From an uncultured Sphingomonas sp. (GTDB taxonomy: Bacteria; Pseudomonadota; Alphaproteobacteria; Sphingomonadales; Sphingomonadaceae): a stretch of 64,000 nt of DNA. The stretch lies in contig CAJYLV010000052.1 in NCBI GenBank assembly GCA_913776255.1, positions 2,883-66,882 on the forward strand. The letters run 5' to 3'. Shown here piece after piece: positions 6,097 through 64,000 of the stretch. Made by a program: the position numbers and the translations under genes. The notes below the pieces were generated by a model that searched no databases, was not told the origin of the DNA, and saw nothing but the letters and a program-made list of their open reading frames with translations. Within the stretch, counting starts at the first letter, position 1; the number at the start of each line of letters is the position of its first letter.

Positions 6097-6792
6097 GTGA
6101 GCGACGACGTCGCTGCCTGGGTGGACGAGGTGCTGGGGGTCAGGCCCGGCGACCCGGCGCTGTTCAAGCGTGCGCTGACGCATTCGAGTCACGCCGGCGA
6201 AAGCTACGAGCGGCTCGAATTTCTCGGCGACCGCGTGCTCGGGCTCATCATGGCCGAGTGGCTGAGCGAGGTGTTCCCCGACGAGCCCGAGGGGCAATTG
6301 TCGAAGCGCTTCAACGCGCTGGTTACGGGTGCGGTCTGCGCGGAGGTGGCGCGCGGGATCGGCGCGGTGGCGCATGTCCGGCTCGGCAAACAGGCGCGCG
6401 ACGATGGCGCGCAGCACGGCGACAACCTGCTCGGCGACGTGATGGAGGCGCTGCTCGGCGCCTTGTATCTGACCGCCGGGCTGGAGGCGGCGCGCGCGGC
6501 GGTGCGGCGGCTGTGGGCGGATCGCATCCACAGCGACGACAAGGCGCCGCAGCATCCGAAGTCGGCGTTGCAGGAATGGGCGGCGGCGAACCGGCGCGCG
6601 GTGCCCGCCTATGAACTGGTCGACCGCGCCGGGCCGGGCCACGCGCCGCGCTTCACGGTGCGGGTGACGGTCGGCAAGGACGAGGTGAGCGCCGAGGGCA
6701 CCAGCAAGCAGGAGGCCGAAACCGCGGCCGCGCGCGCGTTGCTGCACGTGCTGAGCGCGCAGGCGGCGCCGCGGCGCAAACGCCGCCGCTAG
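6097..6792 (+). CDS. rnc: Ribonuclease III
   Basis: ERLEFLGDRVLG, DVMEALLGA and a C-terminal dsRBD; GTG start inferred. Confidence 0.95.
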   Translation: MSDDVAAWVDEVLGVRPGDPALFKRALTHSSHAGESYERLEFLGDRVLGLIMAEWLSEVFPDEPEGQLSKRFNALVTGAVCAEVARGIGAVAHVRLGKQARDDGAQHGDNLLGDVMEALLGALYLTAGLEAARAAVRRLWADRIHSDDKAPQHPKSALQEWAAANRRAVPAYELVDRAGPGHAPRFTVRVTVGKDEVSAEGTSKQEAETAAARALLHVLSAQAAPRRKRRR

Positions 6793-17234: not shown

Positions 17235-18433
17235 TCGACGCATGGCAGCGCGCCGACGGGCGCAAGGGCATCCGCAACACCGTCGCGGTCGCCTATCTGG
17301 TCGAGTGCGCGCATCATGTCGCGAGGCGGATCGTCGACAAGGCCGATGACGCCGACGTGCATCTGATCGGTTTCCCCGGCTGCTATCCCAATGCCTATGC
17401 CGCGCGGGTGATGGAGGCGGTGACGACGCACCCGAATGTCGGCGGGGTGGTGATCGTGTCGCTGGGCTGCGAGAGTTTCGATCGCGAGCGGTTGCAGCAG
17501 GTGATCCGCGACAGCGGCCGCCCGGTCGAGCTGTACGTCATCCAGCAGACCGGCGGCACCGCGGCGACGATCGCCGCCGGGCTGGAGGCGGTCGCGCGGG
17601 TCAAGGCGCAGATCGCCGACGTGCCGCGCGTGCCGATGCGCGTCGACGAGCTGATCGTCGGCACGATCTGCGGCGGGTCGGACGGGACCAGCGGGATCAC
17701 CGCCAACCCGGCGGTCGGGCGCGCGTTCGACCGGCTGGTGGCCGACGGCGCGACCTGCATCTTCGAGGAAACCGGCGAGCTGGTCGGGTGCGAGGGGATC
17801 ATGGCCGATCGTGCGCTGACCCCCGAGCTGGGCGAGGAGATCATGGCCTGTGTCCGCAAGGCCGAGGAATATTACACGATCATGGGCTTCGGCAGCTTCG
17901 CGCCCGGCAATGCCGAGGGCGGGCTGACGACGCAGGAAGAGAAGTCGATGGGGGCGTATTCCAAATCGGGCTCGTCGCTGATCAGCGGGATCATCAAGCC
18001 CGGCGACGTGCCCCCCGCGGGCGGGCTGTACCTGCTCGACGTCGTGCCCGACGGCGAGCCGCGCTTCGGCTTCCCCAACATCTCCGACAATGCCGAGATC
18101 GTCGAGATGATCGCCTGCGGATGCCATCTGACGCTGTTCACCACCGGGCGCGGCTCGGTGGTCGGCTCGGCGATCGCACCGGTCATCAAGATTTGCGCCA
18201 ACCCCGAGACGGCGCGGCGGCTTGCAGCGGATATGGACATCAACGCCGGGCGCATCCTCGAAGGCGACGCGACGCTCGACGAGGTCGGCGACGAGATCGT
18301 CGACGCGATCATGGCGGTGGCCGGCGGGCAGCCGAGCGTGTCCGAAGCGCTGGGGCATCGCGAATTCATCCTGACCTACAAGGCGTTCGATCCGGTAGGG
18401 CCGGCGTGCCTGCCGGTCGCTGCACGGAGTTAA
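17231..18433 (+). CDS. UxaA/GarD family sugar-acid dehydratase, large subunit
   Basis: RADGRKGIRN, HPNVGG, SLGCE, CGGSDGTSG, GNAEGGLTT.EEKS.GA, FTTGRG; ATGA overlap with the upstream gene. Confidence 0.9.
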   Translation: MIDAWQRADGRKGIRNTVAVAYLVECAHHVARRIVDKADDADVHLIGFPGCYPNAYAARVMEAVTTHPNVGGVVIVSLGCESFDRERLQQVIRDSGRPVELYVIQQTGGTAATIAAGLEAVARVKAQIADVPRVPMRVDELIVGTICGGSDGTSGITANPAVGRAFDRLVADGATCIFEETGELVGCEGIMADRALTPELGEEIMACVRKAEEYYTIMGFGSFAPGNAEGGLTTQEEKSMGAYSKSGSSLISGIIKPGDVPPAGGLYLLDVVPDGEPRFGFPNISDNAEIVEMIACGCHLTLFTTGRGSVVGSAIAPVIKICANPETARRLAADMDINAGRILEGDATLDEVGDEIVDAIMAVAGGQPSVSEALGHREFILTYKAFDPVGPACLPVAARS

Positions 18434-56216: not shown

Positions 56217-56288
56217 TAGCGCGCAACGCGGTGACAGCGCGTGGAGATATGACGGTGAGTGACGGCGTGGCGGCGGGGCGCGGCTGAG

Positions 56289-58001
56289 ATGGGCGCGATC
56301 GCCGGGCTGTTCCATCCCGCCACCCCCAAGCCGGTCGACCCCGCGCGCATCCGCGCGATGGCGGCGGCGATGGCGCACCGCGGCCCGGACGGCGCGGGCG
56401 AGTGGACCGCGCCGGGGGTCGGCTTCGCGCACCGCCGGCTGGCGGTGCCCGGCGGGGCGGCGAACGCGCAACCGGTCGCGACCCCGGACCTGCGCTATGC
56501 GGCGATGCTCGACGGGACGATCCTGAACCACGCGCCGCTGCGGGCGGAGCTGCGCGCGCTGGGGCACGAGTTCGTGGGCGAGGGCGATGCCGAGGTGGTG
56601 CTGCACGGTTTCGCGGCATGGGGGCCGGCGCTGCTCGACCGGCTGGAGGGTGCGTTCGCGATCGCGGTGCACGATGCGGCGACGCAGACGCTGTTCCTGG
56701 CGCGCGACCGGCTGGGGGCCAAGCCGTTGCATCTGGCGCTGCTGCCGGACGGTGCGCTGATCTTCGCGTCGGAGCTGAAGGGGCTGCTCGCGCATCCGCT
56801 GCTGCGGCGCGTGCCGGACGGGTTGGCGGTCGCCGACTATCTGGCGCTGGGCTATGTACCCGACGATGCCTGCGTGATCGCGGGGGTGGAGAAGCTGGCG
56901 GCGGGGCATTTCCTGCTGGTCGAGCGCGGGCGGACGCTGCGGGGGGCGCGGCGGTGGTGGACGCTGCCCGAGCAGGGCGCGGCGCCGGCGGAAGCCTTGC
57001 TGGCCGAACTGCGCGCGGCGGTGGCGCGCAGTTCGGGCGACGCGCGGCCGGCGGCGCTGCTGCTCGGCGGGCTGGGCGATGCGGCGGTGGTCGCGCTCGC
57101 GGCGGAGGCGAGCGGCAAGGCGGTGGCGACCGTGGGCGTCGGTGACGATCGCGGGGTGGCGGCGCGGTTCGCGACCGCGCACCGGCGTGCGGCGCTCGAC
57201 GACCTGCCGGCGCTGCTCGACGATCTCGTGGTGGCGTTCGACGAGCCGATCGGCGATCCGGCGGCGCTGGCGGCGATCGTCGCGGCGCGGGGAAGCGGAC
57301 CGGTGGTGATGTCCGGGGCCGGCGCGGCGCTGCTGCTGGACGGCGGGCGCTGGCGGCGGTTCGCGCGGCGTGAGCGGTGGCGACGGTGGCGGTGGACGCT
57401 GCCGGGCCTGGGTGCGGCGCGCGAGGATTACCTGCACGCGGTCGACGCTTCGGATCCGCGCGCGTTGTGGAGCGCGGACGGGCGGCGCGTGCCGGGCGCG
57501 CATGACGTGGCGGCGCGGTTCGCGGCGGCGTGGGGCGGTGGCGATCCGGCCGACGCCGCGCTGCGCTGCGATCTGGCGACGCGGCTGCCGGGGCACGCGC
57601 TGACGATCGCGGATCGCGCCGGAATGGCCGCGGGCGCGGAGTGGCGGACGCCGTTCGCGGATCCGCGGCTGGTGGCGTTCGCGCTGGCGCTGCCGGCCGG
57701 GGTGCGGCAGGCGCGGACCTCACCGCTGGGCGCGGCGATGGCGCGGCACTTGCCGGCGATGCCGGTGGCGGCGCCGCCGCTGCCGGTGTCCCACTGGCTG
57801 CGCGGGCCGCTGGCGGCGCCGGTGGCGGGGCTGGAGCGGTCGCGGCCGTTCGCCGAGTTTGGCTGGTTCGACAGGGCAGGGATCGCGCAGCTGGTCGGGC
57901 ACCATCGCGTTGGCGACGACGCGCCCGGCGCGCTGCTGTGGCGGTTGCTGGTGCTCGAGCGGAGCCTCAGCCGGTTGTTCGGCTGGCCAAGGTCCGCTTG
58001 A
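56289..58001 (+). CDS. Asparagine synthetase-like (XrtA-system amidotransferase-like) protein with degenerate catalytic motifs
   Basis: AHRGPDG, HRRL, ARDRLGAKPL, FASELKGL, FDEP present; N-terminus is MGAIAG (no Cys) and SGGLDS reads LGGLGD. Confidence 0.8.
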   Translation: MGAIAGLFHPATPKPVDPARIRAMAAAMAHRGPDGAGEWTAPGVGFAHRRLAVPGGAANAQPVATPDLRYAAMLDGTILNHAPLRAELRALGHEFVGEGDAEVVLHGFAAWGPALLDRLEGAFAIAVHDAATQTLFLARDRLGAKPLHLALLPDGALIFASELKGLLAHPLLRRVPDGLAVADYLALGYVPDDACVIAGVEKLAAGHFLLVERGRTLRGARRWWTLPEQGAAPAEALLAELRAAVARSSGDARPAALLLGGLGDAAVVALAAEASGKAVATVGVGDDRGVAARFATAHRRAALDDLPALLDDLVVAFDEPIGDPAALAAIVAARGSGPVVMSGAGAALLLDGGRWRRFARRERWRRWRWTLPGLGAAREDYLHAVDASDPRALWSADGRRVPGAHDVAARFAAAWGGGDPADAALRCDLATRLPGHALTIADRAGMAAGAEWRTPFADPRLVAFALALPAGVRQARTSPLGAAMARHLPAMPVAAPPLPVSHWLRGPLAAPVAGLERSRPFAEFGWFDRAGIAQLVGHHRVGDDAPGALLWRLLVLERSLSRLFGWPRSA

Positions 58002-59638: not shown

Positions 59639-60682
59639 TCAGTTGCGCACTGACAGCGAGAAGGTCGCCGACTGCCCGGATCGCGATGTCGCCTGAACAA
59701 GCGTGCCTGACGGCGGAGGCGGCGAGTTCACGCCCGAAAGGGTGCCGCGAAAATCCCACGCGCCGGTCGCATCCGGAAAGGCGTTTCCGAGCAGAGCGCC
59801 GTTGAGCTTGATCGTGACCATATTGGCTTGACCATTTACCGAGACGGGAAGCACCGTGCCGCCGATCCGAAACTCCTTTTTCGAGGTGCGAAAGGCCGCC
59901 GACGTTATGCTGAGTGCGGGCGGCGTGGGGACGCTCGGGTTCGGTACCGTGCCGAATCGACGCCCCTGAACAGTGAAGAGATCGGAGCGGACAAGGTCGG
60001 GGGTGACGGCGTTGGCACTTCCTTGTCCGATGCCCGGCCCCGCGATCTCGACATGGTTGCGAAACGGGCCGCCGGTGACCTGGCGTTCGGAGGCGCCATC
60101 GCCGATGTAGCCCGGCGGCATCCCGCTCGCCCAGGTAAGAAAGGGCGCGATCTCCCCGGTCACCAGCACCTGCTTCATGTTCCCTTCGGCGACACCAAGA
60201 TCGCAGGTTTCGAAAATGCGGCCGCGCGCATCGGCTTTGAACGCGTCGCTCTCGCCATACGGATGACGAACGACATAGGCCGCGTTCGGCCGCAGGTCGT
60301 CGATCCGGATTCGCAGCCGCGCGAACACGACGCCCAGATGCGGCGTCGGCGCCATCGCCATCGTTCCCGCATACCCGGGCAGTCCGTCGCCTTGGAACGC
60401 GGCTTCCAGCGCCATGATCACCCGCGCCCGGCCGACCACGCCGCTGCCACCGACCTCCAGTCGCGCCTCGGCCATGTAATAGAAGGCCTCCTCCGGATAA
60501 TTGCCGGGATAGACGACCGGGCTGCCGGGATCGGGCAGCTCGCCGATCGCCGGCGCCATCGGGTCCGGGGCCGTGACCAGGGCGAGGCGCACGCCATTGG
60601 CATCTTCGAACCACGTCGGGAAACCGTTGCCCGGATCGATCGGGCCGGCGGCCGACAAACGATGGGGATTTCTGACAGCCAT
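59639..60682 (-). CDS. Hypothetical protein of a family seen near Mn-oxidase multicopper oxidase loci, with a beta-rich C-terminal domain
   Basis: GGAGG RBS; GPIDPGNGFPTWFED, YPGNYPEEAFYY, LEAAF, VFARLRIRI, HPYG, GYIGDG, VTGGPF, FTVQG. Confidence 0.7.
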   Translation of the reverse strand: MAVRNPHRLSAAGPIDPGNGFPTWFEDANGVRLALVTAPDPMAPAIGELPDPGSPVVYPGNYPEEAFYYMAEARLEVGGSGVVGRARVIMALEAAFQGDGLPGYAGTMAMAPTPHLGVVFARLRIRIDDLRPNAAYVVRHPYGESDAFKADARGRIFETCDLGVAEGNMKQVLVTGEIAPFLTWASGMPPGYIGDGASERQVTGGPFRNHVEIAGPGIGQGSANAVTPDLVRSDLFTVQGRRFGTVPNPSVPTPPALSITSAAFRTSKKEFRIGGTVLPVSVNGQANMVTIKLNGALLGNAFPDATGAWDFRGTLSGVNSPPPPSGTLVQATSRSGQSATFSLSVRN

Positions 60683-61080
60683 AAGCACCTCCGCCGTTGC
60701 GCGACTCGTGCCGACTGGCTTTCGCCTCGTCCCGACGACTGCTTTGGTCGAGGGCTGCGATCCAGCTTCTTTAGCTGGGCATGATGATGCCGCAAATGCA
60801 TCGTCGCCGCAACAGAAGGATTCATCGCTCGAACCGATCCTGTGCAAAAGTTACAATTGGTCGATCCGCAGGTCTGGAGCGCTGAGCAGGGGGGCGGCGG
60901 AGTCAAATCACCTGCCGAGATCGGGCCGCGCATCTTTTATCAATTTCATCGAACAAGTAGAAACGGGACCTTTGACATCGTCCATGATCCGTGACAGGTT
61001 TCGAGGCGGAGTCGTCGACTCCTAAAAAATAACATCTGACACACGGGCCGCTGCGCATCCTTTAAAAGGGGGGTAGCGTC

Positions 61081-61713
61081 ATGCCACTAGTAGCCGGATC
61101 GAATTCGTTCGAAAGCGCTGCTTTGCCGAAGGGCTTCAAGTCGCGCGGGGTCGTCAAGACCCGCACGTCCATGAAGTCTCCGGACGGTCACATGGTGTCC
61201 CCCATTGCGGGGCGCCGCTTCGTCTGCATCGACGATCCGGAGGCGGTCGACGCGCGCCGCATGCGGATCAACCCGCAGACGGCGGAGAACCTCGTCGGCA
61301 CGGTCGTCCGGCCGCAGTCCGGCGTGCCCACGATCGCGGCGGACGGCGCCAGTCTCGTGTGCGAGGGCGTCGTCCTTTCGAGCGGCCAGCGGCTCGTCTT
61401 CGCGTTCAATTTCATGACGTGGGGCGACATGCCCTGGAACGATTTCGCGACGTTCGAGGCGTTGCCGACCAATCCCGGCTCCTATGGCCTGCGCCGCTAC
61501 GTGCTGTGCGATCTGGCGGAACTGGCCACCGCCGGCCGGCGCGCGTCCGATTGGCGGCTGGTGACGTGGAGCCTCACCGACGATTTCACCGGAACGCTCA
61601 CCTGGACCGTGGCGAACGGGCAGGAGGTTACCGACTGGACCTTGCTCGATCCGGCGGCGGAGGCCTTCTCGAACCCGCCGGCGCTGCTCATCGACGATAT
61701 TCGGGTGTTCTGA
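61081..61713 (+). CDS. Hypothetical protein, predicted beta-sandwich
   Basis: 210 aa with G-rich RBS; NSFE...FAFNF..D.PWNDFA...ALLIDDIRV; ends 19 bp before the oxidase gene. Confidence 0.75.
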   Translation: MPLVAGSNSFESAALPKGFKSRGVVKTRTSMKSPDGHMVSPIAGRRFVCIDDPEAVDARRMRINPQTAENLVGTVVRPQSGVPTIAADGASLVCEGVVLSSGQRLVFAFNFMTWGDMPWNDFATFEALPTNPGSYGLRRYVLCDLAELATAGRRASDWRLVTWSLTDDFTGTLTWTVANGQEVTDWTLLDPAAEAFSNPPALLIDDIRVF

Positions 61714-61732: not shown

Positions 61733-64000
61733 ATGATGCACGTCGCCGATTTCCGCTTCGCATGGCTGCGCAAGGCAGCGCTCGCACTCTGCCTGTTCGG
61801 ATTGGGCGGCTGCGCGGCGACGACTGGCCATGTCACGGCGGCCGGCGGCGGCCCGATGGTCGACGATGCCCCGCCATCGGGGCGGACCGTGACCGCGGAC
61901 GTCGTCGCGATCAACCAGCCGATCGTCTACAACCGGTTCGGCTCCACGAACCCGTGGGGGATGATCTACGCGCTGCGACGCGACACCGAACGTGCGGAGG
62001 ATGGCCAGACGGTGTTGCGCCCGGCGCGTCGACCGCGACCGCTGGTGCTGCGCGTCGCGGCCGGGGACGTGCTCGAGATCACCTTCCAGAACCTGCTCAG
62101 ACCCGTGGCGGACGAAGGATCAACCGGCGGCGCGGCGGCCGCGCCGTCCGCGGCAGGCACGGGCGTGACCGTGCCCGATCCGCCGAACGATCCGCGCACG
62201 CGGCGCGCGGGCATCGCGATCGTCGGCCTCGAGGCGCTCGACGGCAACGATCCTCTGGCGACCGGGCTGGTCGGCGTCGATCCCGGTGCGCGGCAGACTT
62301 ACCGGTTCAGGACCTCGCGCCCGGGCGCCTATTTCTTCTCCAGCCTCGCCGCGATCGCGGGGGGCGAGGGCAACGGCGGATCGTTGACCCACGGTCTGTT
62401 CGGCATGGTGATCGTCGAGCCGCGGGGCGCGCGTTTCTATCGCAGCCAGGTGGACGAGCGCGCTCTCGCCTGTGCCAAGGGCGCGCGTGGCGATTGCGCC
62501 GCCAACGCCGGCGCCCCCGGTTATGTCAATTACGAGGCGATCGATCCCGTCGACGGCAGTCCGGTGCTCAACATGCTGGCCGAGCGCGGTGCGCATCGCG
62601 CCGAGCTCGTCCACGGCGACCTGACGGCGATCGTGGTCGATCCGGCGGCCGCGGCGCAGGTGGGCCAGCCGGCGACGGACGGCGCACGATCGGGGCGCGA
62701 GGCGTGGCGCGAGTTCGCGATCATGTTCCACGACGAACTGAAGACGGTCCACGCCCCCGATTTCGCAATCCTCAACGATCCGCCGGAGGGCGATGTCGCC
62801 GCCGCGGCGCGCAACAGGCAGCTCGCCGGTATCCGCGACGGCTTCGCGATCAACTATGGCGCGAGCGGCGCGGGCACGATCGTTCTGGCCAATCGCCTCG
62901 GCAGGGGCCCGGCCCGGAAATGCGTCGATTGTGCGTACGAGGAATTCTTTTTGCAAAGCTGGGCCAACGGTGATCCGGCGCTGCTGCCGGAATATCGCGA
63001 CGACCCCAGCAACGTCTATCACAGCTATCTCGGCGACCGGGTCAAATTCTACAATGTCCACGCCGGTCCGAAGGAAACCCATGTCTTCCACCTGCATGCG
63101 CATCAGTGGCTCTCGCAGAGCGCAGGCAGTCGCGGCAATTATCTCGACAGCCAGACGATCGGGCCGTTCCAGGCGTTTTCCTACGAAATCTATTACGGGG
63201 GCACCGGCAACCGCAATCTGACGCCCGGCGACTCGATCTTCCACTGCCACCTCTATCCGCATTTCGCGCAGGGCATGTGGGGACTCTGGCGGGTCCACGA
63301 GACGCTGGAGGACGGCACCCGTGCGCTGCCCGACGGCGGCGGCATGAACGGCGAGTGGGAAGGGCCGGGGACCGATCCCGCCACCGGGCTTGCCAAGGGG
63401 GGAACCCCGATCCCAGGTCTCGTCCCGCTGCCGGGTCAGGCGCTCCCGCCCGAGCCGACCTACCTCGACACGGCCGGCGACGACGCGATGCCCGGCTACC
63501 CGTTCTACATCGCGGGCAAGCGCGGCTATCGTGCACCGCAGGCGCCGAACGACATTTTCGAGGATGGTGGCTTGCCGCGCCATGTGACGGAGCTGCCCGA
63601 TGGCATCTCGATCACCCAGGCGCGCCATGTCCTGCCGATCGAACAGGCGCTCGACCAGGCCGACCTCACCTTCCCGATCGAGGCGGTCAAGCTGTCGATC
63701 CTGCCGCAGGAGGGAACCCGGCTGGAGCGCGCGGCGATGAAGTTCCACGCGCGCGCCGGCGGCCGGATCCCGCGCCCGCTTTCCGACAATCTGGGGCTGA
63801 GCGCGCCGGGGGGCTTCCTCGTCAACGGCCTGCCTGCCGCGCCCGGCGCGCCGTTCGCCAATCCCTGTCCCGAAGAGCCGGGTCAGGCCGATCACTGGGT
63901 CAACGGTCTGCCCTCGCTGGCGACGGGGATGCGACGCTACGACGTTTCGGCGATCGAACTCGACCTCGTCGTCAACCAATATGGCTGGCACGACCCGCAG
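61733..64000 (+). CDS. mnxG: Large MnxG-type multicopper oxidase, N-terminal ~756 aa (runs off the window end)
   Basis: Manual translation: GGAGG RBS, LGGC lipobox, YNRFG, RPRPLVLRVAAGD, CVDCAYEEFFL, HVFHLHAHQW (63080), HCHLYPHFAQGMW (63242), GWHDPQ at the window end, all in one frame. Confidence 0.85.
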   Translation, partial: MMHVADFRFAWLRKAALALCLFGLGGCAATTGHVTAAGGGPMVDDAPPSGRTVTADVVAINQPIVYNRFGSTNPWGMIYALRRDTERAEDGQTVLRPARRPRPLVLRVAAGDVLEITFQNLLRPVADEGSTGGAAAAPSAAGTGVTVPDPPNDPRTRRAGIAIVGLEALDGNDPLATGLVGVDPGARQTYRFRTSRPGAYFFSSLAAIAGGEGNGGSLTHGLFGMVIVEPRGARFYRSQVDERALACAKGARGDCAANAGAPGYVNYEAIDPVDGSPVLNMLAERGAHRAELVHGDLTAIVVDPAAAAQVGQPATDGARSGREAWREFAIMFHDELKTVHAPDFAILNDPPEGDVAAAARNRQLAGIRDGFAINYGASGAGTIVLANRLGRGPARKCVDCAYEEFFLQSWANGDPALLPEYRDDPSNVYHSYLGDRVKFYNVHAGPKETHVFHLHAHQWLSQSAGSRGNYLDSQTIGPFQAFSYEIYYGGTGNRNLTPGDSIFHCHLYPHFAQGMWGLWRVHETLEDGTRALPDGGGMNGEWEGPGTDPATGLAKGGTPIPGLVPLPGQALPPEPTYLDTAGDDAMPGYPFYIAGKRGYRAPQAPNDIFEDGGLPRHVTELPDGISITQARHVLPIEQALDQADLTFPIEAVKLSILPQEGTRLERAAMKFHARAGGRIPRPLSDNLGLSAPGGFLVNGLPAAPGAPFANPCPEEPGQADHWVNGLPSLATGMRRYDVSAIELDLVVNQYGWHDPQ

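Follow-up and report, generated by a model that had tools for sequence, protein, structure and literature searches.

An MnxG-like six-domain multicopper oxidase with two conserved accessory genes as candidate manganese-oxidation system of an uncultured Sphingomonas sp.

Results and Discussion

Identification of an Intact MnxG-Like Oxidase

The DNA stretch of 64,000 nucleotides analyzed here (the window) comprises positions 2883-66882 of contig CAJYLV010000052.1 (contig C52 of the source genome G000) of an uncultured Sphingomonas sp. and ends within a gene encoding a large multicopper oxidase (MCO). Judged by its sequence, the enzyme is a MnxG-like prokaryotic six-domain MCO, i.e., a single chain of more than 800 amino acids with six cupredoxin repeats, and we lean towards reading it as an exported, probably lipid-anchored Mn(II) oxidase which would use O2 at the cell envelope. 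It is preceded by a small gene, B, with a divergent gene, A, further upstream, and is followed on the contig by the genes C, D, and E. The discovery value is modest, because the core of the cassette corresponds to a known system; the novelty is represented by an apparently untested branch of the family, the probable lipid anchor and two conserved accessory genes.

The reading frame begins with the ATG at 61733 on the + strand and extends without a stop to the end of the window over 756 codons, just as the first-pass annotation had stated; it was missing from the track of closed open reading frames (ORFs) because it runs off the window and is therefore open at its 3′ end. These codons (61733..64000, +), assigned by means of the open frame, NCBIfam, PDB and the alignment, are the first 756 of 1732, and the frame reaches contig position 69813. 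Truncation or a pseudogene could be ruled out, as the frame is intact over 1732 amino acids. The 19-kb locus showed depth in 30 of 30 bins from contigs of four public runs, which derive from four studies. One of these runs (X4) stems from the possible source study and the whole locus is spanned by no single piece; the longest pieces match it nearly letter for letter. An assembly chimera is unlikely, since cassette and flanks are covered by runs of three further studies. No RNA run is listed among the holders of locus DNA.

Membership in the MnxG family, at first proposed from short motifs, was borne out by database comparison and by the order of the copper ligands. The sole strong match in NCBIfam is copper_ox_MnxG (E = 1e-218), and the best match in the PDB is the MnxG of Bacillus (9BXA, E = 6.5e-98), which is matched along its whole length in stretches that are largely colinear, with some cross-matches between repeats. 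Further PDB matches are short and belong to small laccases and copper oxidases (E ≥ 2.5e-9), the CopA model of NCBIfam is matched with only E = 0.04, and Pfam detects a single Cu-oxidase_2 stretch. The MnxG-style blocks listed by the first-pass annotation were all recovered (VVAINQPIVYNRFGSTNPWGMIYALRRD, RPRPLVLRVAAGD, RDGFAINYG, CVDCAYEEFFL, PSNVYHSYLGD, PGYPFYI, and GWHDPQ), as were its two copper motifs, HVFHLHAH at residues 450-457 (63080..63103, +) and HCHLYPHFAQGM at residues 504-515 (63242..63277, +).

Based on motif and alignment, individual residues were assigned to copper types according to the general rules for MCOs and, for the first motif, also to PMC3600357. The first motif would thereby supply the type-1 ligand His450 and the trinuclear-cluster ligands His453 and His455, the second one the trinuclear His504 and His506 and the type-1 ligands Cys505, His510, and Met515. 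Extension along the contig located the remaining HxH motifs, H818-I-H820 and H914-D-H916, which are encoded beyond the window and represent the domain-3 half of the trinuclear cluster. Both the type-1 site of domain 2 (H450, C505, H510, M515) and the eight-His trinuclear site (H453, H455, H504, H506, H818, H820, H914, H916) are complete, and none of the 12 ligands, the type-1 residues included, varies among the 100 family members aligned (100 of 100 rows); they occur in MnxG order. The alignment was established from the best oxidase ORF of each of 78 loci (the window's included), 21 database proteins and one Bacillus plasmid homolog, and includes two proteins which pass the MnxG cut-off; 12 loci (L002-L005, L087-L090, L036, L042, L062, L064) were excluded as duplicates or truncated pieces. 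The same arrangement, with a type-1 site in domain 2 and a trinuclear site between domains 2 and 3, is described for bacterial MnxG-like proteins in the available text of PMC3600357. Residues H333, D334, E335, E403, E404, D414, and E448 are common to both reference types and invariant in 86 close homologs.

The N-terminus of the oxidase carries a predicted lipoprotein-type signal peptide ending in LGGC27 (61733..61813, +), which was recognized from the sequence with a heuristic of our own. According to the same heuristic, a lipobox-like Cys is present in 10 of the 11 scored oxidases linked to gene B and in 11 of 44 others, a comparison confounded by kinship.

Two minor features of the copper sites were observed besides. 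Chain A of 9BXA has Ala at the position equivalent to the type-1 His510; the deposited MnxG is presumably an engineered point mutant. Domain 4 of the oxidase contains a relic copper-site motif without Cys, EVQHVFTVHG (residues 1114-1123, L001:8955-8984), whose His1117 is kept in 99 of 100 rows; it may represent the fifth copper-binding region counted for P. putida MnxG in the available part of a 2026 review (PMC13689576).

Position within the MnxG Family

As stand-ins for P. putida MnxG we used P0395 and P0403, which are the two of 22 scanned database proteins passing the MnxG cut-off. Trees were calculated with FastTree from the 100 rows and with IQ-TREE in quick mode from 31 of those rows. 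Both place the oxidase on a branch separate from the P. putida-type equivalog proteins (FastTree support 1.0; SH-like approximate likelihood ratio test (SH-aLRT) of IQ-TREE 99-100). The branch includes proteins of Nitrosomonas europaea, N. mobilis, Nitrospira, Methylocaldum, Marivita, and Methylobacterium, and the oxidase shares it with the “MnxG” of N. europaea with an SH-aLRT of 98-99. The stand-ins of the two Mn-oxidizing MnxG systems lie on different sides of this branch. The oxidase is thus not an ortholog of P. putida MnxG and not a member of its equivalog; the N. europaea protein reaches 648 bits on the same NCBIfam model.

The MnxG-like family is large: of 7993 candidates scored, 1521 proteins reach E ≤ 1e-20, and GTDB genomes contain at least 588 confirmed stretches. 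Judging by their match spans, several loci from Sorangium, Longimicrobium, and Thermoanaerobaculia (L011, L012, L018, L020, L025, L035, L044, L045, L067) appear to contain a pair of MnxG-type genes in a stretch of about 10 kb.

Downstream Genes and Comparison with Known Systems

Downstream of the oxidase three co-directional genes follow, the coordinates of which refer to contig C52 since they lie outside the window. Gene C (69810-71615, +; 601 amino acids) overlaps the oxidase frame by ATGA and is propeller-like, gene D (71612-72208, +; 198 amino acids; GTGA overlap) encodes a SCO1/SenC protein with the motif CSSVC (PF02630, E = 2.9e-12), and gene E (72195-73412, +; 405 amino acids; 14-nt overlap) encodes a c-type cytochrome with the motif CAACH (PF00034, E = 6.6e-5) and a likely binding-protein-like part. 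The propeller and binding-protein labels of C and E rest on homologs: gene C itself has no Pfam match, its homologs match models of a YNCE-like propeller (L010) and of YtkA (L115), and one homolog of gene E matches Peripla_BP_6 weakly. Together with gene B, which ends 19 nt before the oxidase start with a strong Shine-Dalgarno run in between, these genes likely form a five-gene operon B-oxidase-C-D-E. SCO and propeller-like genes had been predicted downstream and were found as D and C, whereas a regulator, likewise predicted, was not found within the cassette; the genes after E encode an hxlR-type regulator and an SDR.

Homologs of C, D, and E were detected by tblastn (E ≤ 1e-4) in 52, 42, and 24 of the 78 GTDB loci, respectively, and all three in 23; since each locus is cut off at 10 kb or where its contig stops, the true counts may be higher. 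Those of gene C lie beside the oxidase, in loci of many phyla. The published operon of P. putida GB-1 consists of mnxG, a YVTN propeller gene, two SCO genes, a cytochrome c::substrate-binding protein fusion and a SurA gene (PMC11409713, Table 4, and PMC8218464, as far as their text is available). Based on this operon and on the frequency of homologs among the 78 loci, the core has to be regarded as a known, widespread module. The suggestion of an undescribed variant locus consequently finds no support as far as the core is concerned; what may be new are the branch and the genes B and A.

Like the P. putida GB-1 operon, the cassette encodes a large six-domain MCO of the exported type whose ligands come in the same order. 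A propeller-like gene, SCO and a cytochrome c fusion follow in identical sequence, co-directional and tightly spaced. It differs in the oxidase itself (31% identity to the stand-in P0395, 729 vs. 3100 bits, a separate and well-supported branch), in having one SCO instead of two, in lacking SurA, in that neither regulators nor a sigma-54 site were found nearby, and in the lipobox-like signal, the extra upstream gene B and the divergent gene A. The Mnx complex of Bacillus sp. PL-12 (MnxG with MnxE3F3; PDB 9BXA) has the six-domain scaffold and the copper motifs in common with the oxidase, and also in Bacillus small genes are located immediately upstream, namely mnxE and mnxF in the contiguous mnxEFG (PMC5622069, available text). 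However, the Sphingomonas oxidase is longer (1732 vs. 1227 amino acids) and predicted to be exported to the cell envelope and not to a spore exosporium, and B is one predicted jelly-roll protein of 210 amino acids for which no 9BXA chain is among the top listed fold matches.

The “MnxG” of N. europaea (NE0315), named by homology, shares several features with the oxidase: it lies on the same branch, has a similar NCBIfam score and a lipobox-like signal, and is directly preceded by a single-copy B homolog. In contrast, the core identity is about 50% and no homolog of C, D, or E was detected within its locus (L043, equated with NE0315 from organism and family). Three-domain MCOs (CopA, CueO, CotA, MoxA) and two-domain small laccases likewise combine a type-1 copper with a trinuclear cluster for the four-electron reduction of O2, but matches to them are short and weak, the oxidase chain is about three times longer, and its HCH block precedes two HxH motifs, so that the order is permuted.

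Accessory Genes B and A

Gene B (61081..61713, +; 210 amino acids) is likely the first gene of the operon and encodes, as deduced from ORF, alignment, structure model and Foldseek, a putative jelly-roll protein of the carbohydrate-binding-module (CBM)/MAM type. The first-pass annotation had pointed to two unusual neighbors of the oxidase, and both B and A turned out to be conserved partners. In 11 of the 78 loci the oxidase is immediately preceded by a B homolog; further pairs were found in G151, on plasmid pSH1 and in both metagenome hits of a search starting from B, which apparently belong to one organism. The pairs span Alpha-, Beta- and Gamma-proteobacteria as well as Nitrospirota and include nitrifiers and methanotrophs. 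In 7 of the 11 loci no gene C homolog was detected, hence B tracks the oxidase more closely there than the other genes do. Next to 14 further oxidases of this branch no B was detected. Of five genomes searched, four contain a single copy of B, and in one none was found; as these genomes were chosen through the oxidase, this is a thin converse test. Within the oxidases, 23 scattered columns set the B-linked enzymes apart compared to 0-17 in 30 shuffles; they form no patch and are confounded by kinship. On pSH1, a gene of the DarT single-stranded DNA ADP-ribosyltransferase family is annotated just upstream of B (L091:8354-8965).

The model of B, calculated from an alignment of 29 sequences, reached a predicted local distance difference test (pLDDT) of 92.9. 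Foldseek assigned its fold to CBM4/CBM22 (E about 2e-5), and VIA gave a Z of 12.8 and a root-mean-square deviation of 2.9 over 124 aligned residues; MAM and cleaved-adhesin jelly-rolls are matched as well, and the identity to CBMs is at most 14-17%. A profile search yielded 147 representatives, 24 of them at E ≤ 1e-30, which are mostly stand-alone proteins of 205-245 amino acids, while the distant relatives (18 scanned) occur as domains within PEP-CTERM proteins and adhesins of the cadherin type. Complex prediction for B and two parts of the oxidase (residues 48-530 and 730-990) was uninformative, with a score of 0.00 and controls that were not folded.

Gene A (59639..60682, -; 347 amino acids) consists of an N-terminal domain of about 245 residues and one C-terminal immunoglobulin (Ig)-like domain, and has no match in Pfam, NCBIfam or PDB. 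Its N-terminal domain resembles that of secreted Big_9/cadherin-stalk proteins encoded near MCO genes, of which gene A appears to be a compact version by sequence comparison. Among eight sequences D27, E65, E93, H140, and D161 are invariant, which suggests metal binding. The model based on these eight sequences is poor (pLDDT 55) and confident only for approximately residues 256-347, and the fold search revealed nothing informative beyond Ig-like repeats. As a lead only, two of three listed gene A clusters carry the Atlas label “Glycoprotein gp2” (0.81-0.82); proteins so labeled track Mn oxidation in proteomics of P. resinovorans according to the available text of PMC13631088.

A homologs occur in 5 of the 78 oxidase loci, and all four independent hits of searches starting from A lie near an MCO gene. 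In G257, one of 400 genomes of the genus, the A homolog is found 1.5 kb from a six-domain MCO. On the Skermanella plasmid the order is MCO-SCO-A, on the Indioceanicola plasmid A is situated about 18 kb from a MnxG-type gene, and on the Arthrobacter plasmid NZ_CP084562.1 (L113:3655-14517) it is flanked by MCO genes, with an Nramp transporter and a metal-dependent regulator close by. The latter region is a candidate for a plasmid-borne Mn island; its annotation splits the upstream MCO into two overlapping ORFs. The MCO of G257 (L086:10114-17673) is a long-branch protein of 1669 amino acids with 12 of 12 ligands, apparently without signal peptide, and the adjoining A homolog is signal-less, too, and 56% identical; this MCO is possibly a cytoplasmic or otherwise exported variant.

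The region between A and B contains a -35-like box, TTTGACAT (60971-60978), as candidate promoter and a perfect 13-bp palindrome, GAGTCG-T-CGACTC (61009-61021), as candidate operator. The palindrome occurs once in G000; both elements are kept in the Novosphingobium locus L006 (palindrome at 6486-6498), and the palindrome was not found in 11 other loci checked. Scans for sigma-70 promoters and terminators remained at chance level, and a search at the locus revealed no two-component genes of the MnxS1/S2/R type. In a Nitrospiraceae genome a sigma-54 consensus is located about 100 nt upstream of a B-oxidase pair (L061:8080-8094), which echoes the sigma-54 control in P. putida.

Proposed Function and Alternative Interpretations

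Within the reading as Mn(II) oxidase, the protein would leave the cytoplasm through Sec and be held by a lipid anchor at Cys27, and a secretin system may carry it to the surface (G000 encodes two secretins). Copper would be loaded by the SCO protein D, probably helped by the propeller/YtkA-type protein C. Mn(II) might be bound in an acidic pocket near the type-1 copper of domain 2, with H333-D334-E335, E403, E404, D414, and E448 as candidate residues, from where electrons would pass one at a time via Cys505 and His504/His506 to the trinuclear cluster between domains 2 and 3. There O2 would be reduced to water, and the product would be Mn(III) and then Mn(IV) oxide. The cytochrome c E could serve as redox partner, B as branch-specific helper and A as surface or mineral-binding protein. 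In favor of this proposal, the two tested MnxG systems, of P. putida (PMC13689576) and Bacillus PL-12 (PMC5906577), oxidize Mn and isolates of Sphingomonas were reported as Mn oxidizers (PMC6396730), each according to the available text; the position of the branch between the stand-ins of these two systems, the conserved ligands and acidic residues, and the gene order in common with the P. putida GB-1 operon point the same way, and the Nramp transporter and the metal-dependent regulator beside the A homolog on the Arthrobacter plasmid represent a supporting context.

A number of observations weigh against a function in Mn oxidation. The full-length colinear alignment with P0395 shows 31% identity, and with 728.9 bits the oxidase does not reach the 3100-bit equivalog cut-off of NF041487. 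Its branch holds proteins of N. europaea, Nitrospira, and methanotrophs, and a preprint (10.1101/2024.12.25.630300), as far as its text is available, describes mnxG homologs as common in Nitrospira, Nitrosomonas, and Methylomonadaceae and as widespread in taxa without a link to Mn oxidation, and homology as a poor predictor of function. The available text on the mnxG of N. europaea discusses it only in a setting of iron and oxidative stress (PMC11024918). Regarding the trees, the root lies on two long branches and came with a long-branch warning, and the Bacillus outgroup is a plasmid homolog of B. cereus, not the MnxG of PL-12. At the locus, there is no second SCO gene and no SurA-domain gene, and no sigma-54 consensus (TGGCAC-N5-TTGC) in L001; in the source genome, which is 79% complete, gene D has only one match. 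Neither gene A nor gene B encodes an evident signal peptide, which fits poorly with a role of their products outside the cell. For B this was judged by a hydropathy heuristic, and 24 of the 25 top representatives lack a hydrophobic N-terminus in the same simple kind of test, which argues against B as a periplasmic subunit unless it is exported by another route.

An unlikely alternative, though one to be taken seriously, is a ceruloplasmin-like oxidase of Fe(II) or Cu(I) for metal homeostasis or the defense against oxidative stress, with Mn oxidation being absent or incidental. Among six-domain MCOs there are ferroxidases in which the cluster likewise lies between domains 2 and 3, e.g., the algal Fox1 (PMC3600357, available text), the mnxG of N. 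europaea from the same branch is down-regulated together with iron-uptake genes under stress (PMC11024918, available text), and the acidic pocket would suit any divalent metal. However, the cassette contains no iron permease or copper-efflux gene, and its accessory genes correspond to the set of the proven Mn oxidase of P. putida. Moreover, G000 encodes a separate MCO on contig C36, where the one further HCH-type MCO motif of the genome closes a frame of about 628 codons near 18206; by motif position and length this MCO looks like an ordinary CopA-type enzyme. Many MCOs oxidize phenols. A surface laccase-like oxidase of plant phenolics or pigments, with the CBM fold of B or the Ig domain of A targeting polysaccharides or plant surfaces, would fit the labeling of several runs holding locus DNA as plant metagenome, including runs of two studies besides the possible source (X9, X13), as well as the predicted CBM fold. 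We nevertheless regard it as quite improbable: B-oxidase pairs exist in nitrifiers and methanotrophs, too, a shared fold at 14-17% identity at best is no proof of sugar binding, and the conserved acidic residues suggest a metal as substrate.

Very unlikely in our view is an electron-harvesting module in which part of the electrons from Mn(II) or another donor would enter respiration via the cytochrome c E instead of all being passed to O2. Such a role would agree with the c-type cytochrome gene of the cassette, of which 24 of the 78 loci have a homolog, and with the loss of Mn oxidation in Pseudomonas ccm mutants and a published proposal of energy conservation (PMC13689576, available text). 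On the other hand, the O2-reducing trinuclear site is complete, and no E homolog was detected in 54 of the 78 loci, which end at 10 kb or at contig ends, nor within the locus of the N. europaea gene.

Going beyond the reading as lipid-anchored Mn(II) oxidase, one may speculate that the branch of sphingomonads, Nitrosomonas, Nitrospira, and methanotrophs represents a third architecture of Mn oxidases, a lipid-anchored MnxG with the jelly-roll protein B as dedicated subunit in place of the non-homologous MnxE/F, and that the A domain is a general module of unrelated Mn-oxidizing MCOs for nucleating or anchoring Mn oxide; we consider this a long shot. If it were true, the two-gene unit B-mnxG of the cultured N. 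europaea would make the need of a Gram-negative MnxG for an accessory subunit directly testable, and likewise whether nitrifiers and plant-associated sphingomonads mineralize manganese. The MnxG of Bacillus needs MnxE/F for activity (PMC5622069, available text), and the available text of the 2026 review lists the need of pseudomonad Mn oxidases for MnxE/F-like proteins as an open question (PMC13689576). B is a concrete candidate for such an accessory protein, located directly before the oxidase and sometimes without a propeller gene detected nearby.

In the literature we found no tested member of the oxidase branch, the N. europaea “MnxG” included. None of the titles and abstract openings covered describes the branch, B or A, where both genes are nameless and subscription papers and supplements are outside this coverage. 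Homologs of mnxG serve as metagenome markers of Mn oxidation (10.1101/2024.12.25.630300, available text), a use that the activity of one branch member would confirm or undercut where water-filter nitrifiers and methanotrophs are concerned. It would also reveal if sphingomonads associated with plants are able to form Mn oxides.

Distribution and Genomic Setting

Using a 167-amino-acid core piece of the oxidase as query, no homolog was detected in 60 relatives and three were detected in 400 other genomes of the genus (G151, G413, G257), situated on three different branches. The nearest named relatives belong to Novosphingobium (84%), Erythrobacter (72%), Pistricoccus (65%), and Competibacteraceae (64%). 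Sphingobium xenophagum carries a copy of all five genes on its plasmid pSH1, with three integrase genes in the vicinity. The assignment of the host to Sphingomonas would agree with the same-genus genome G151, which encodes a protein whose start matches P0025, an entry listed under Sphingomonas at NCBI. The rarity within the genus, the scattered branches and the plasmid copy indicate that the cassette likely spreads by horizontal transfer. A recent insertion, by contrast, left no sign at the locus: there are no convincing repeats, L001 contains no tRNA, and the third-position GC of B, the oxidase, C, and D (0.86-0.88) is like that of host genes, with 0.77 for A and 0.75 for E. An empty site is supported by no joint in the contigs of the public runs. 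An animal-haem peroxidase of the MopA type was not found in G000 (79% complete), in a search whose positive control was silent as well. With no sign of belonging to the cassette, an ORF encoding an asparagine-synthase-like amidotransferase with a GC content of 77% is located to its left (window 56259-58001).

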